Part shown: positions 10,548 to 17,463 of the stretch, piece by piece
How the letters are laid out: each line of letters begins with the position of its first letter
How positions within the stretch are numbered: position 1 is the first letter of the stretch
Source of the DNA: Candidatus Wukongarchaeum yapensis
GTDB lineage: Archaea; Asgardarchaeota; Wukongarchaeia; Wukongarchaeales; Wukongarchaeaceae
Direction: 5' to 3'
NCBI GenBank assembly: GCA_016840425.1
Contig: JAEOSI010000022.1
Location: 1 to 17,463 of the forward strand
DNA: 17,463 nucleotides
Program-made: the position numbers and the translations under genes
Notes under the pieces: model-generated
The model's input: only the letters and a program-made list of their open reading frames with translations
Databases searched by the model: none
Told to the model about the DNA's origin: nothing

Positions 10548-11438
10548 TCAAACGCCTAAAAGCTGATCCACATAATCGAAGTCTATAGTCTCACCCACGA
10601 TATTACAAAATTTATCAAGGTTTTGCAGCCAAACTTTCCTCACATCATCTAAGTTACTATTGGTTTTTTTGGTGTTTCTTTTTTGTGGGTTGAAACGTGT
10701 TATGTTAAGGGTTATCGAGTCTTCTGCAGGGAGGACAAGGTCTTCTATGTAGGGCACTACGCCTAAAACTCTTTTTTTTGTTCTTTTTTCAAGGTATTTT
10801 ATGCCTGGTTCCAGTATCTTTTGGTCTCCTCTAAACTTGTTAATAATAAAGCCTTTAATGAGCTTCTTTTCCGGATATCTTAACAGTTCTAAGGTTCCAA
10901 TTAAGCCTGCAAAAACACCTCCAGGGTCAATATCCCCAATCATCAAAACGGGAGAGTCGAAGATCTGTGCAACACGCATGTTAGAAATATCACTTTTCAT
11001 TAAGTTTATCTCGCTTGGGGCTCCCGCTCCCTCAATAATTACCATATCATAACGGTTCAACAAATCTTTCAATGCTTCTCTAATGCGAGGAAAACCCTCC
11101 TTTATTGCAAAGTATTTCCGATAATCTGGAAAACTCATATCCTGATAAGGTTTTCCAAAAAGGATAATCTGGACTTTTTCCCCTCCTTTAGGCTTTAAAA
11201 GGATCGGATTCATCATTTCAGCGGGTTCTATGTTACACGCCATGGCTTGAAACGCTTGAGCTACAGCAATTTCTCGACCATTAGCGGTAACAAAAGAGTT
11301 TAGAGAAAGATTTTGTGCTTTAAAAGGAGCAACATTATATCCCATCTTAGAGTAAATCCTGCAAAAAGCAGCTGTAAACAAGCTTTTACCACTATGCGTC
11401 AACGTGCTTTGAAACATTAACGAACAAGCCTTTTCCAT
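10548..11438 (-). CDS. Cobyric acid synthase paralog with synthetase domain only (no glutaminase domain)
   Basis: P-loop STLTHSGKS, PFKAQNLSLNS, NPILLKP, IEGAGAPSEINL, INKFRGD and LPAEDS motifs are present. No GxCGGYQ or GTYLHG motif. The frame is intact at 296 aa. Confidence 0.85.
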   Translation of the reverse strand: MEKACSLMFQSTLTHSGKSLFTAAFCRIYSKMGYNVAPFKAQNLSLNSFVTANGREIAVAQAFQAMACNIEPAEMMNPILLKPKGGEKVQIILFGKPYQDMSFPDYRKYFAIKEGFPRIREALKDLLNRYDMVIIEGAGAPSEINLMKSDISNMRVAQIFDSPVLMIGDIDPGGVFAGLIGTLELLRYPEKKLIKGFIINKFRGDQKILEPGIKYLEKRTKKRVLGVVPYIEDLVLPAEDSITLNITRFNPQKRNTKKTNSNLDDVRKVWLQNLDKFCNIVGETIDFDYVDQLLGV

Positions 11439-13475: not shown

Positions 13476-13519
13476 TGTATTACGATTGTATTACAGAACA
13501 CAACTTTTAAGTACTAACT
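13476..13519 (+). promoter_or_regulatory. Tandem GTANTAC boxes + BRE/TATA upstream of the trpD-like gene
   Basis: TGTATTAC-GAT-TGTATTAC-AGAACACAAC-TTTTAAGTA; 37/44 identical to 17160-17203. Confidence 0.7.
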
Positions 13520-13601: not shown

Positions 13602-14714
13602 ATGGTTTTTGATGGGTTGATGTTGAAAGATTTTGGTGCTAAGGTGTATAGATTAATAAAGGGTAAAAGCCTCACAAGGGAAGAAGTTAGAGAGATGATG
13701 AAACAAACACTTTTAAACGAACAACCAGATCTCCATCAAGGCGCTTTTCTTGCAGCGATAACAGCGAAAGATTCTACTCCTGAGGAGATTGCTGGTTGTT
13801 GGGAAGCTGTATATGAGTATGATACTGTGAAAGTTACTCCAAATGTTTCAGGACCTTTGGTTGAAAATTGTGGCACGGGAATGGATGACATTAAAACTTT
13901 TAATATTAGTACTGCGGCGGCGGTAGTGGGCGCAGCTGGGGGTGTTTATATGGCTAAACATGGGGCAAGGGCTATAACTTCTAAGTGTGGTGCTGTGGAT
14001 ATAGCAGAAGCTTTGGGTGTAGATGTTGAATGTAATCCCGAGCTTGTGGAGAAGAGTATAGAGAACGCTGGAATCGGGCTCTTTAACGGGATGAGTTTAA
14101 AAATTCATTCAAAAATGGCTAGGATTTTGGCTCAAATCAGGTTTGGTTCAATTTTGAACATTTCAGCATCCCTTGCTAATCCCGCCCTTCCACCCTATGG
14201 AGTGAGGGGGGTTTATTCAAAAGATTTAGTCGTGCTTGTTGCCAAAGCGATGAAAGAGATTGGTTATGAAAGGGCTCTTGTGTTTTGCGGTTTGAATGGT
14301 GATCAGACAAAGGTTATAGACGAGATCTCAATCCTTGGTGAAACTTTTATAGCTGAAATTTCTGAAAAGAACGGAATTGCCACGTATACGGTTACCCCTG
14401 AGGAATTTATGATAAAGCGTTGTGATGAGGGCGCGATACTTTCAACAGGAGATGTGGAAAAAGAGAGTTTAAGTCTTTTAAGGATTTTAAGCGGTAAGGA
14501 TAAGGGACCAAGGTTTGAGATATTATGCCTTAATGTTGCCCCCATACTTTACATAACAGGCAAAGCTAAAAGTCTTGGAGAAGGATATAAGATGGCAAAA
14601 GAGATCATTGATTCTGGAAAAGCGATTGATAAGCTTAGAGAATGGCTAAAAGAGCAAAACAGTGACCCTGATAAAGCTGAGAAAAGGCTTGGAAAATTGT
14701 TAGAAAATGCCTAA
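13602..14714 (+). CDS. Anthranilate phosphoribosyltransferase-like protein (glycosyltransferase family 3), probably not acting on anthranilate
   Basis: ENCGTGMD..TFNIST, AKHGAR, LANPA and DEIS match the TrpD fold. The canonical GTGGD and KHGN motifs are altered, and no trp genes lie nearby. Confidence 0.8.
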   Translation: MVFDGLMLKDFGAKVYRLIKGKSLTREEVREMMKQTLLNEQPDLHQGAFLAAITAKDSTPEEIAGCWEAVYEYDTVKVTPNVSGPLVENCGTGMDDIKTFNISTAAAVVGAAGGVYMAKHGARAITSKCGAVDIAEALGVDVECNPELVEKSIENAGIGLFNGMSLKIHSKMARILAQIRFGSILNISASLANPALPPYGVRGVYSKDLVVLVAKAMKEIGYERALVFCGLNGDQTKVIDEISILGETFIAEISEKNGIATYTVTPEEFMIKRCDEGAILSTGDVEKESLSLLRILSGKDKGPRFEILCLNVAPILYITGKAKSLGEGYKMAKEIIDSGKAIDKLREWLKEQNSDPDKAEKRLGKLLENA

Positions 14715-14890
14715 AAAAAGAAAGAAGGAAAAAACCTCCATGCTCTCTTGAAAATAAGTTTTGTGGAATTTTCCACGCGATTTTATTTTTTTTGCTCTTT
14801 TAATCTCGTTTTTCTTTTTTAGCTCCTTGATTTCGACGCTTTTGCTTTTCTTTCGAGGTAGTTGGCACGACTTTAGAAGGTGACACTTTG

Positions 14891-15943
14891 ATGAAGGCAG
14901 CGATTTTGAAGCGTGTATGCGAGATGAAAGTAATGGAATTTGAGAGGCCTCAAGTTGTTTCTGGTGGTCTTTTAGTCGAGGTTGGCGCGTGTGGGATATG
15001 TCGTACTGATGTTAAAATGTATCACAAGGGTCACAGGGATTTAAAATTGCCTCGTGTCCTCGGTCATGAAGTTAGTGGTACCATTCTGGAGGTTGGGAGA
15101 GAGGTAAAAGAATATTTTGATGTGGATATGCGTGTTCAAATAGCGCCAGGCATTGTTTGCGGCATGTGTCGTTACTGTCTTATGGACGCTCCTAATATGT
15201 GTGATCGTATGCGCATTATTGGATTTCATCTTGATGGAGGGTTTGCGGAATACATATGGGTGCCTCCTAGCGCTATTAGGAGTGGTTGTGTAAATCCCCT
15301 TCCTCCAAGTCTTTCTTTTGAGGTCGCGTCTCTTGTAGAGTTGTTGGCATGTTGCATTAATAGTCAGCGGCTTGCCAGGGTGGGATTAAAGGACGTTGTA
15401 GTGGTTATTGGTTGCGGTCCTGCTGGAGTGTTGCAGGCTAAACTTGCTCGTTTTTTTGGAGCAGAAAGCGTGATAGTTATTGAGAAGGACCCTAAAAGGG
15501 TGGAGATGGCAAAACAGGTTGTTAGAGAAGCTGACATGGTTGTCAACAGTTCTTCTGAAGATCCTTTGGAGGTGGTTGCTTCTGTTACGGATGGTAGAGG
15601 GGCAGATGTAGTTATTATCGCTTGTTCTAATGGTAATGCCCAGCTTCAAGGTTTGGAGATGCTTGCTAAACGTGGGCGTTTAAGCATGTTTAGCGGACTT
15701 CCTTCAGAAACCCCAGTTATCTTGTTGAACAGTAATGAGATTCATTATAAAGAGGCACAAATTATTGGAGCTTATGGTTGTACTTCTTTACAAAATCATC
15801 AAGCTATATGGTTGCTTGGAAGTGAAAAAATAGACGTTTCTGGTTTGATAACTCATCGTTTTAAGCTTGATGATATACTAGAAGGGTTCAAGATCATAGA
15901 AATCAAAAAAGGACTTAAAGCCGTGATTAAAACAAAAAAATAG
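14891..15943 (+). CDS. Zn-dependent medium-chain dehydrogenase (sorbitol/iditol/threonine dehydrogenase-like)
   Basis: Catalytic Zn motifs CGICRTD and LGHE, structural Zn CGMCRYC-x7-C, and NAD-binding IGCGPAG. ATG 14891 follows an in-frame TTG at 14888. Confidence 0.9.
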   Translation: MKAAILKRVCEMKVMEFERPQVVSGGLLVEVGACGICRTDVKMYHKGHRDLKLPRVLGHEVSGTILEVGREVKEYFDVDMRVQIAPGIVCGMCRYCLMDAPNMCDRMRIIGFHLDGGFAEYIWVPPSAIRSGCVNPLPPSLSFEVASLVELLACCINSQRLARVGLKDVVVVIGCGPAGVLQAKLARFFGAESVIVIEKDPKRVEMAKQVVREADMVVNSSSEDPLEVVASVTDGRGADVVIIACSNGNAQLQGLEMLAKRGRLSMFSGLPSETPVILLNSNEIHYKEAQIIGAYGCTSLQNHQAIWLLGSEKIDVSGLITHRFKLDDILEGFKIIEIKKGLKAVIKTKK

Positions 15944-16072: not shown

Positions 16073-16088
16073 TAAATATACGTAGTAC
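16073..16088 (+). promoter_or_regulatory. TATA-like box followed by one GTAGTAC box upstream of the RHH-CblS gene
   Basis: TAAATATA-C-GTAGTAC; a 1-mismatch box TGTAGTAA lies at 16062-16069. Confidence 0.35.
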
Positions 16089-16159
16089 TAGTTTTTGAGT
16101 GTTTTTTGATAAGGGGATAAAGTCACTAGCTTTAGACTAAGCCACAGGAGTGGGTAATA

Positions 16160-17089
16160 GTGGGAACTAAGGTAGTAAACTGTCGTTTACCAGAAAAGAC
16201 CGTAGATGAATTAAACGCTTTTGCTAAACGTTTCAACTTAACTAAATCTAGCATAATAAGACAAGCTTTAATCACTTACATAGAAATGCTAAAAAACGCG
16301 AACCAAATCTTGGTTCCGAATTTTAAGGTTAATCCTTCACAATTAGCAATAAACAGAAGACATAACTGCACTTTTATACGATTCCCAAATAAAATGGTCT
16401 TAGTGTTAGGTTGTATTTCCTCAGGTAGTATCGGGCCTAATTCTATGGATAAATTAAAGGTTAGCGGGTTTCTTCTAGGAAAGTTAACTACTAGGGCCGC
16501 TTTAATGGACATTATATCGATTAATGCTTGGCCAATATCAATTGCAGCAACATTATGTGTGAAAATGGACCCAACAGGATCGGAAATAATAAGGGGAATT
16601 AAAACAGAAATGGTTAGAGCAGATCTAGATCCGTTAATTTTAACCGTAGATACGGAAGAGAATTTTGATACCGAACAAACAGGCATCGGCCTAACTGTTA
16701 TAGGATTAACTCATGAAGAAGATTTGAAAATCGGAACAAGTCAAATAGGTGACGTGATAATAGCTGTAGGAAAACCATGTGTTGGTCAAGAAGTACTAGA
16801 AGCAAAATCACGTAAAGAAATAGCGGATTTAAAAGATATTATAAGCTTTTTGAAGCTTGAGTATGTACATGGAATAATGCCTGTTGATACAGAAGGAATA
16901 CTTAGCAAAGCTAACCTATTAGCTCATTCGATCGGTAAAAATGTAAAGTTCTACGAAAACATCAAATTTGATTTAGAGAAGTCAGCTGGTCCTTCTACAA
17001 CAGTGTTAGTTACGGTCGACAAGAATAAAGTAAAAGAGTTTTTAAAATATTTGTATAAACCTTATTCTCTTATTGGAGAAATCGTCTAA
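16160..17089 (+). CDS. Ribbon-helix-helix DNA-binding domain fused to an alpha-ribazole kinase (CblS)/PurM-like domain; putative transcription factor
   Basis: Residues 1-45 (KVVNCRLPEKTVDELNAFAKRFNLTKSSIIRQAL) follow the CopG/NikR RHH pattern. The remainder has CblS-type motifs MDPTGSEIIRGI, TEENF, QTGIGLTVIG, VGKPCVGQEV and KSAGPSTTVLV. GTG start 7 nt after AGGAGTG. Confidence 0.8.
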   Translation: MGTKVVNCRLPEKTVDELNAFAKRFNLTKSSIIRQALITYIEMLKNANQILVPNFKVNPSQLAINRRHNCTFIRFPNKMVLVLGCISSGSIGPNSMDKLKVSGFLLGKLTTRAALMDIISINAWPISIAATLCVKMDPTGSEIIRGIKTEMVRADLDPLILTVDTEENFDTEQTGIGLTVIGLTHEEDLKIGTSQIGDVIIAVGKPCVGQEVLEAKSRKEIADLKDIISFLKLEYVHGIMPVDTEGILSKANLLAHSIGKNVKFYENIKFDLEKSAGPSTTVLVTVDKNKVKEFLKYLYKPYSLIGEIV

Positions 17090-17158
17090 AACTTTTTTTA
17101 AATTAGCGAAAACGTGCCAAAATAACTTAAAGAACAACGAAACATTTATTCTAAACTT

Positions 17159-17203
17159 CTGTACTACAACTGTAGTACAGAACACAACTTTTAAATATCA
17201 ACT
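17159..17203 (+). promoter_or_regulatory. Tandem GTANTAC boxes (perfect 10-bp inverted repeat) + BRE/TATA upstream of cobT
   Basis: CTGTACTACA-AC-TGTAGTACAG followed by AACACAAC-TTTTAAATA. Confidence 0.72.
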
Positions 17204-17315
17204 CTTAACCTAAGAGCAGAAAAACACTTACTCTACACTTACGTACTACAATATTATTAACCCTACAATGAAAATAACCCTCGATCTGAGCGTATTTTGA
17301 AGGAGGTAAATTTTT

Positions 17316-17463
17316 ATGAAGGACGTAATTTTTGCTCGTGCAAAGGAAAAAGGCGAGGAATTTGTCAGGAAGATAAAGGGTAAAACCCCTGTTTTTGTAT
17401 GCGTTATAGGCAACTCTGAAACAGGAAAAATACCTGGCTTATCCGCTGCAGGCGCAGTTCCAG
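17316..17463 (+). CDS. cobT: Archaeal-type nicotinate-nucleotide:benzimidazole phosphoribosyltransferase, N-terminal 49 aa (runs off window)
   Basis: Manual translation MKDVIFARAKEKGEEFVRKIKGKTPVFVCVIGNSETGKIPGLSAAGAVP. ETxxIPGxSAAGA is the N-terminal signature of the archaeal CobT (MJ1598-type) family. SD AGGAGGT at 17301-17307. Confidence 0.82.
   Translation, partial: MKDVIFARAKEKGEEFVRKIKGKTPVFVCVIGNSETGKIPGLSAAGAVP

Follow-up and report, generated by a model that had tools for sequence, protein, structure and literature searches.

A ribbon-helix-helix protein fused to a degenerate alpha-ribazole kinase domain, a candidate cobamide lower-ligand-sensing transcription factor of Archaea

To our knowledge, Archaea are without the cobalamin riboswitches that dominate in Bacteria, and for this reason the regulation of cobamide genes in Archaea is largely unknown. 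For other vitamins, archaeal regulators join a pathway-enzyme domain to a DNA-binding domain, ThiR (thiamine) having the same design in this respect as RbkR (riboflavin), and ligand-controlled DNA binding is established for the ribbon-helix-helix (RHH) proteins NikR, MetJ and PutA. The stretch of DNA analysed here (the window: 17,463 nucleotides, positions 1 to 17,463 of contig JAEOSI010000022.1 of Candidatus Wukongarchaeum yapensis) is a locus for the biosynthesis of cobamides (vitamin B12) in an archaeon of low GC content (38%), which is represented by a metagenome-assembled genome (MAG) of 2.16 Mb that is 92% complete. The window contains corrin-ring genes, cbiP, a trpD paralogue, a gene for a Zn-dependent dehydrogenase of the medium-chain dehydrogenase/reductase (MDR) superfamily, a gene encoding an RHH domain fused to a degenerate homologue of the alpha-ribazole kinase CblS (the RHH-pseudoCblS gene), and the 5' end of an archaeal-type cobT gene. 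An initial annotation, made by reading the sequence alone, had interpreted the fused gene as encoding a cobamide regulator, and this interpretation is supported by the analysis that follows. We consider it probable that a catalytically dead CblS is the sensor domain of a homodimeric transcription factor for lower-ligand supply.

Both halves of the 309-residue protein are recognizable as the initial annotation had described them. Pfam RHH_1 (PF01402) matches residues 9-42 with 22.0 bits against a cut-off of 20.5, and the arginine at position 9 is invariant in 24 fused proteins. An AlphaFold2 model built from a 60-row alignment (mean predicted local distance difference test score, pLDDT, of 90.8) has two N-terminal helices (residues 12-25 and 29-51), a linker, and a compact alpha/beta body. 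For residues ~56-309, Foldseek gave SelD, HypE, ThiL, PurM and PurL at E values of 1e-14 to 1e-12, with template modelling (TM) scores of about 0.5-0.6 for SelD, HypE, ThiL and PurM, and PurL and PurM were matched among the Swiss-Prot models; as modelled, the C-terminal body has the two-domain fold of the PurM superfamily. Pfam AIRS (PF00586) scores 16.2 bits on the 309-residue protein against a cut-off of 24, and a precomputed PF00586 match is present in several of its fused and unfused relatives.

There is no CblS model in Pfam or NCBIfam, where only weak matches to AIRS, SelD, ThiL and methanogenesis-marker-2 models were obtained, and homology was therefore anchored on the operon-defined genes of Listeria and L. 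plantarum. An unfused relative (P0036) matches genes of L. plantarum pMF1298-5 and of Listeria with tblastn E values of 3e-38 to 6e-40. Its target in pMF1298-5 is the gene flanked on one side by that of an energy-coupling factor (ECF) S component and on the other by cobS and a histidine phosphatase gene (cobC), an operon described as CblT-CblS-CobS-CobC (PMC6722938), and its target in Listeria is the gene directly upstream of cobU-cobS-cobC. The fused protein itself aligns with the Listeria CblS homologue over residues 68-294 at 29% identity (BLASTP E value 6e-28). Judged by these sequence matches, its C-terminal domain is a true CblS homologue.

Several motifs of the kinase are eroded in this homologue. 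The initial annotation had named four of them by their consensus motifs, and its list holds on alignments to real CblS sequences: relative to Listeria and pMF1298-5 CblS, RDL is replaced by H68-N69-C70, CD by C85-I86 (C-I-S for C-D-S, the codon at 16415-16417 being ATT), GSTEEN by V163-D164-T165-E166-E167-N168, and PVGSKG by P241-V242-D243-T244-E245-G246. An additional eroded position is the Asp of the 'vvDtL' strand, which is A130 (A-A-T-L). The protein thus departs from all of the conserved CblS motifs R-D, C-D-S, v-v-D-t-L, G-S-T-E-x-N and P-V-G-S-x-G. Residues at these positions were tabulated for 48 fused and 12 unfused CblS sequences in the same alignment. Position 68 is G, H, N or A in the fused proteins and R in 11 of the unfused ones; position 86 is T or I in the former, and D (11) or E (1) in the latter; position 130 is V, A, L or T versus D in 11; position 163 is E, V, D or I versus G in all 12; position 164 is N or D versus S in 11; and position 244 is variable versus S in all 12. 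That is, Arg68, Asp86, Asp130 and Gly163/Ser164 are missing in every fused protein (48/48), each of them being kept in 11 or 12 of the 12 unfused CblS sequences. Invariant or nearly so in both sets are G89, G92, K94, D97, R112, D/E117, E166, N168, Q173, T174 and A276-G277-P278, which is consistent with a retained pocket.

In alignments of hidden Markov models (HMMs) to solved PurM and PurL, A130 corresponds to the conserved strand Asp, G-S-T-E to the GGE(T) motif, and P-V-G-S-x-G to the glycine-rich loop of the C-domain; D117 is kept in the 309-residue protein. The conserved strand Asp residues of the PurM superfamily are absent, with A130 at this strand and I86 at the other conserved CblS Asp. 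Asp residues of that kind hold Mg-ATP in the structures of ThiL, PurM and PurL. Given the loss of the conserved Arg, both Asp residues and the Gly-Ser, the domain most likely no longer carries out phosphorylation.

A homodimer is predicted with an interaction score (ipSAE) of 0.73, the best of three controls scoring 0.00, and the mark applied to this score is one reached by 20 of the 30 homodimers and 1 of the 23 single chains with solved structures. At least 91% of contacts agree among the runs, and the pLDDT of the partner is at least 84. The predicted interface comprises RHH residues 1-44, in which residues 1-12 and 29-44 of both chains make contact, together with the PurM-type sheet (79-91, 124-134, 157-185). 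Since both types of dimer have solved precedents, the homodimer pass may reflect likeness to known structures. In the model, residues 86-89 of one chain contact residues 164-166 of the partner, so that the eroded positions cluster at the dimer interface, which is the location of the active site in the superfamily.

When a tree was computed by maximum likelihood from 63 rows of the CblS domain, all 48 fused proteins fell into one clade (ultrafast bootstrap 100; Shimodaira-Hasegawa-like approximate likelihood ratio test, SH-aLRT, 99) that has a long stem (0.67) and is nested among archaeal unfused CblS; the tree was rooted at its midpoint, and the direction of change was inferred from Firmicute outgroup rows, which have long branches. 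According to this sequence tree, the RHH-CblS fusion has a single evolutionary origin. A scan of one genome per species gave 159 confirmed relatives; all of the 80 that are listed are full-length fusions, mostly from Bathyarchaeia and one from Methanomethylicia. Locus counts given below refer to these 80 among the 159 and hence almost entirely to Bathyarchaeia. Among 150 sampled genomes from the phylum to which the window belongs, only one other had a match, a genome of the same genus in which cblS is unfused, and the source label at NCBI of a protein with 92% identity is Asgard group archaeon. So patchy a distribution suggests that the fused gene was acquired horizontally. In the same-genus genome (G002, L102:302-2238), cobT is followed by an intact unfused cblS (L102:1465-2238) with RD, CDS, IDTL, GSYEKN and PVGSRG motifs, and the comparison of this gene with the fused one is a natural contrast of enzyme versus regulator.

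The repeated elements that the initial annotation had noted near 13476-13519 and 17159-17203 are present as a 44-nt repeat of 84% identity, the second copy occupying 17160-17203. In each copy, one GTANTAC heptamer starts 11 bp after another, and 10 nt further on there is a TATA-like box (TTTTAAGTAC and TTTTAAATAT, respectively). The heptamer occurs 237 times in the 2.16-Mb genome, and the pair GTANTAC-N4-GTANTAC exactly three times: before the trpD-like gene, before cobT, and, with a different spacer, at a strain-variant cobT site on contig C203. Four composition-matched control motifs have no exact match in the same genome. A variant of the pair on contig C69, GTACTAC-N7-GTACTAC followed by a TATA box, is located upstream of a Peripla_BP_2/BtuC/corrinoid-ATPase (btuFCD-like) operon. 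No cobalamin riboswitch (RF00174) was found in the 92%-complete genome, and an Rfam scan of the window gave no match. A scan for bacterial sigma-70 promoters and terminators was set aside as uninformative for an archaeon.

Co-occurrence of the GTANTAC repeat with the fused gene extends over three lineages, where the element precedes cobT, a CblT-like ECF S component gene, a btuF-like gene or the regulator gene itself; the relatives that have it before cobT, the ECF S component gene or the regulator gene show 42-79% identity. The 79% orthologue (L011) has GTACTAC-ATGT-GTAGTAC and a TATA box before cobT and also keeps the downstream single heptamer; L011/L012 and contig C203 keep the cobT operator but differ in its spacer, and the layout of operator, 10 nt and TATA box is common to the cobT site, the 13476-13514 site, L011 and L013. 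In a 52% orthologue of the Methanomethylicia type, GTACTAC-ATCT-GTAATAC begins right after the stop codon of the regulator gene and is followed by a TATA-like box, and the ATG that starts a gene for a CblT-like ECF S component comes ~25 nt later, a distance that fits a leaderless transcript; the next gene encodes a PfkB ribokinase-family kinase. In Bathyarchaeia the order is TATA box (ATAAAAGC), ~10 nt, GTATTAC-N4-GTAGTGT (or GTAATAC as the second half), and the start codon of the regulator, which puts the operator at the expected transcription start. The pattern GTAN[AT]AC-N4-GTANN[AG][CT] is found no more than 70 nt upstream of the regulator gene at 33 of the 80 loci and elsewhere in 3 copies in ~1.8 Mb, a density ratio of ~3500. 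With a stricter consensus and up to two mismatches, 40/80 loci are matched versus 21 sites elsewhere in 906 kb, and the remaining loci have degenerate forms of the same TATA-operator layout. Divergent neighbours that share the intergenic region of the regulator include an ECF-S gene (13/80) and cobT (8/80) as well as cobD, cbiB and phosphomutase genes; CbiZ, BtuFCD and CobA genes also adjoin it in relatives, and an ADH_N gene is near it in L008.

Some further features of these loci were observed. The Methanomethylicia-type arrangement, with an ECF S component gene and a PfkB ribokinase/nucleoside-kinase gene downstream of the regulator and operator, is present at L013:9015-10419 and in L017 (a Methanomethylicia-type MAG), and the PfkB gene is a candidate for a non-orthologous alpha-ribazole kinase that replaces the dead CblS. 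Among loci L018-L096 (e.g. L020:4853-5812 and L020:6937-7422), a gene for an archaeal phosphopantetheine adenylyltransferase is convergent and downstream in 53/80, and a divergent upstream gene for a secreted, C-terminally anchored protein of ~320 residues without a Pfam family is found in 40/80. A multi-pass membrane protein of 204 residues, also without a family, is encoded after cobT in 8 loci (L015:6186-6800) and is possibly a transporter. On contig C69, the region between cobN and the btuF-like/btuC/btuD operon (C69:12650-12760; L100) contains two palindromes of the TAGG-N8-CCTA type, reported as the second motif of the corrin-ring promoters in the window, in addition to the two GTACTAC heptamers, which are 14 bp apart beside the TATA box; two regulatory systems may converge on corrinoid uptake here.

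In the mechanism that we propose, the two N-terminal RHH halves would pair into a single DNA-reading head, and the C-terminal domains, descended from the alpha-ribazole kinase CblS, would form a PurM-type dimer. The CblS-like domain would still bind the substrate or product of CblS, i.e. alpha-ribazole or, more likely, alpha-ribazole-5'-phosphate. Each RHH dimer would read one GTANTAC heptamer, itself a small palindrome, and two dimers would occupy the heptamers of GTANTAC-N4-GTANTAC, whose centres, being 11 bp apart, are on the same side of the helix. Occupancy by the ligand would alter affinity for the operator, thereby matching lower-ligand activation and uptake to supply. Putative targets in the genome of the window are cobT and the trpD-like/MDR pair, with the variant element placed before the btuFCD-like corrinoid transporter operon. 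As to sign, we lean towards product-dependent repression of these targets, which the logic of feedback favours, and towards autorepression in Bathyarchaeia, where the operator is at the expected transcription start. Quite possibly, and here we speak more tentatively, the protein, from a genome labelled as Asgard, is the founding member of a widespread archaeal family of alpha-ribazole(-phosphate) sensors. Such a family would have arisen by one RHH-CblS fusion with inactivation of the kinase and would have been transferred between Bathyarchaeia, Methanomethylicia and the lineage of the window; its members would be dual regulators, acting on their own genes by autorepression at the transcription start and on cobT, CblT-like and btuF promoters from upstream of the TFB-recognition element (BRE)/TATA box, and would constitute the first known regulators in any organism to sense the lower-ligand branch and not the finished corrinoid.

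Three other explanations were weighed. If the fused protein were a bifunctional enzyme-regulator like RbkR and BirA, its CblS domain would still phosphorylate alpha-ribazole by means of substitute residues while the protein controls transcription; this would agree with the invariance of D97, R112, D/E117, E166, N168, Q173, T174 and AGP276-278, and an archaeal precedent is documented in RbkR, an active kinase to which a DNA-binding domain is fused (PMC5397151). Dual activity of this kind is nevertheless quite improbable, considering that Asp86, Asp130, Arg68 and Gly163 are gone from the entire fused set and preserved in nearly the entire unfused one, that Asp130 aligns with the active-site strand Asp of PurM and PurL, that a PfkB kinase gene follows the ECF-S gene in the 52% orthologue as if another kinase were needed, and that the genome of the window has in cobT a source of alpha-ribazole phosphate that requires no kinase. 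It is rather unlikely that the transcription factor is as described and the ligand is another: a free lower-ligand base, a nucleotide (ATP or ADP), or a complete or incomplete corrinoid. The inclusion of a btuFCD-like corrinoid transporter, a trpD paralogue and an MDR dehydrogenase of unknown role in the putative regulon speaks for such a ligand, as does the remodelling of the pocket at several positions, by which specificity could have shifted; however, the loss has affected those acidic positions at which Mg-ATP would be bound in this superfamily, the CblS pocket is otherwise conserved, it is at the base/alpha-ribazole step that the most frequent neighbours (cobT and the CblT-like ECF-S gene) act, and a corrinoid is far larger than the substrate of CblS. 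Least credible, and very improbable in our estimation, is that the RHH domain only autoregulates or is a CopG/antitoxin-like remnant, with the CblS-like domain having acquired a new function and the heptamers being read by another factor. The RHH match exceeds the Pfam cut-off only barely and has a likeness to antitoxin and aCcr1 models as well, and in genomes that do not have the fused gene, heptamer pairs are found beside unrelated genes, yet the operator tracks the fused gene over three lineages even as its target switches (cobT, ECF-S gene, own promoter), no heptamer-pair element was found upstream of cobT in the genome of the same genus whose cblS is unfused, and there is no adjacent toxin partner gene in the window.

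A number of observations weigh against the proposed sensor and its regulon. No structure of CblS is present in the PDB, and profile and single-sequence searches against PurM, PurL and SelD aligned only the middle of the domain, leaving I86, H68 and V163-D164 unmapped to solved catalytic residues; Asp130 is the only position alignable to a catalytic-site Asp of a solved relative. Non-cobamide genes, namely a CoaD gene and that of a secreted protein without a family match, flank 40/80 of the Bathyarchaeial loci. Three out of four genomes from the phylum of the window in which the fused gene is absent have one exact heptamer pair each; these may be sites of another factor, and on their account the pattern alone is not diagnostic, the case resting on position and conservation beside the fused gene. 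(The three pairs are at 1501-1518 of L104, L105 and L106, from G004, G007 and G002, upstream of HD-domain, tyrosine recombinase (integrase) and cdc6/orc1 genes; a reverse-read control pattern has no match in these three genomes.) When up to two mismatches are allowed in the genome of the window, the pair has 42 matches, no more than the 64-89 of the control motifs, so that the regulon is not extendable by pattern search; the best-looking extra site, on contig C74 and 5' of a 5-formyltetrahydrofolate cyclo-ligase gene, was dropped as unsupported. The element 5' of the RHH-pseudoCblS gene consists of one heptamer only and is missing from the 79% orthologue L011, which makes autoregulation in the lineage of the window only tentative. 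A location just upstream of BRE/TATA is the classic position of an archaeal activator, so that activation may apply instead of the repression favoured above. Finally, that the protein binds DNA, which ligand it senses and whether it represses or activates are inferred.

The features of the window that bear on the proposed regulator are collected in Table 1. The start of cobT and its TIGR00303 match agree with the earlier statement that the fused gene is directly upstream of cobT, and a full-length strain-variant copy of cobT (L005:260-1363) scores 405.7 bits on TIGR00303 (cut-off 240). The MDR dehydrogenase gene is possibly in one operon with the trpD-like gene. An open reading frame on the opposite strand (16276-16686) was rejected as a shadow of the RHH-pseudoCblS gene without support.

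Table 1. Features of the fused gene, its candidate operators and adjacent genes (positions in the window)
Feature	Coordinates	Strand	Remarks
RHH-pseudoCblS gene	16160..17089	+	GTG start, 309 aa, stop included; homologues of 307-319 aa with 42-92% identity and the same architecture
Shine-Dalgarno-like GGAGTG	16147..16152	+	7 nt 5' of GTG start; kept in 79% orthologue L011; read from sequence
RHH DNA-binding domain, residues 1-51	16160..16312	+	predicted beta-strand ~4-10 (K-V-V-N-C-R-L), helices 12-25 and 29-51
Linker, residues 52-62	16313..16345	+	lower model confidence, pLDDT block means 62-65
CblS-like (PurM-fold) domain, residues 68-309	16361..17086	+	H68, I86, A130, V163-D164 and D243-T244 at conserved CblS positions
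TATA-like TAAATATA (16073-16080), then single GTAGTAC heptamer (16082-16088)	16073..16088	+	tentative autoregulatory site
Operator O1 5' of cobT, TGTACTAC-AAC-TGTAGTAC	17160..17178	not assigned	two GTANTAC heptamers, 11 bp apart
TATA-like TTTTAAATAT	17189..17198	+	10 nt 3' of O1; presumed cobT promoter, read from sequence
O2, single heptamer GTACTAC	17243..17249		between presumed promoter and cobT start; kept in L011 (9085) and contig C203
Archaeal-type cobT, 5' end	17316..17463	+	partial match to NCBIfam TIGR00303; gene cut by contig end
Second operator, TGTATTAC-GAT-TGTATTAC	13476..13494		5' of trpD-like/MDR genes
TATA-like TTTTAAGTAC	13505..13514	+	10 nt after second operator, within 44-nt repeat
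trpD paralogue, putative regulon member	13602..14714	+	TIGR01245, 264 bits
Zn-dependent MDR dehydrogenase	14888..15943	+	Pfam ADH_N and ADH_zinc_N

Several other features of the genome deserve mention. A second TrpD homologue (36% identity by tblastn) is encoded elsewhere in the same genome, at C106:4356-5390, on which account the copy in the window probably has a role other than in tryptophan biosynthesis; perhaps it acts in lower-ligand chemistry. Contig C203 (4.3 kb; L005:260-1938) duplicates positions 16742-17463 of the window, i.e. the 3' end of the RHH-cblS gene and the operator, and continues through a full-length cobT; its RHH-cblS copy has 88% amino-acid identity with PVDSEG in place of PVDTEG, and its operator has the spacer AATT. 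This contig is probably a co-assembled strain variant, which would make the MAG heterogeneous at the RHH-cblS/cobT locus. The window also has a second cbiP-like gene (10548-11438), in tandem with the full-length cbiP, that lacks a glutamine amidotransferase domain and matches cobyric acid synthase models over their first ~250 positions only; the full-length cbiP has an extra N-terminal Cys-rich zf-like domain.

The fused protein offers a testable answer for one branch of cobamide regulation, as there are a defined protein, a candidate operator of 18 bp, few candidate ligands, and a natural active control in the unfused CblS of the sister genome. From sequence comparison, it also appears to be a clear example of the conversion of an enzyme to a sensor, which took place once, removed the catalytic residues completely and left the remainder of the pocket in place. 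Should the ligand be alpha-ribazole or its phosphate, the protein might serve as a biosensor for a cross-feeding metabolite that is hard to measure; and with the family being frequent in Bathyarchaeia, a group abundant in both sediments and soils, knowledge of the regulon would help to predict which of these organisms synthesize, remodel or scavenge cobamides. No description of an RHH-CblS regulator, an archaeal cobamide transcription factor or a lower-ligand sensor was found in the searchable literature, which leaves out most subscription journals, in agreement with the initial annotation, which knew of none.

Among described systems, CblS itself (Listeria innocua and Geobacillus kaustophilus, where it works with the CblT transporter) is the closest to the fused protein, with which it shares homology over the whole catalytic domain, the PurM-type fold, and genomic company consisting of cobT, a CblT-like ECF S component and cobS/cobC-type genes. 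Unlike CblS, the fused protein has an N-terminal RHH domain, has lost the Arg, two Asp and Gly-Ser, belongs to a separate clade, and is probably not a kinase. It resembles RbkR in having a pathway-enzyme domain as a putative sensor together with a DNA-binding domain, in candidate operators that precede biosynthesis and transporter genes, and in the lack of a matching riboswitch. Its likeness to the enzyme-derived vitamin regulators of the RbkR/ThiR type appears to be one of function and not of homology: in place of a winged helix-turn-helix there is an RHH domain, the sensor has a PurM/CblS fold, and the vitamin is different. RbkR keeps kinase activity (PMC5397151), whereas the fused protein appears to have lost it. 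With NikR, MetJ and PutA it has in common a DNA-reading head in the form of an RHH dimer, a C-terminal ligand or enzyme domain, and short operator repeats about one helical turn apart, but its C-terminal domain is unrelated to theirs in sequence and fold, and their ligands are nickel, S-adenosylmethionine and proline/FAD. RHH-CblS proteins are thus a new family within a known design principle, that of an enzyme domain as a vitamin sensor. Like the cobalamin riboswitch (RF00174), the regulator would control an overlapping set of cobamide biosynthesis and transport genes; it differs in being protein and not RNA, and the riboswitch senses complete corrinoids and not a lower-ligand intermediate. 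The conserved operator before lower-ligand genes suggests that a protein sensor may do in these Archaea the job that riboswitches do in Bacteria.

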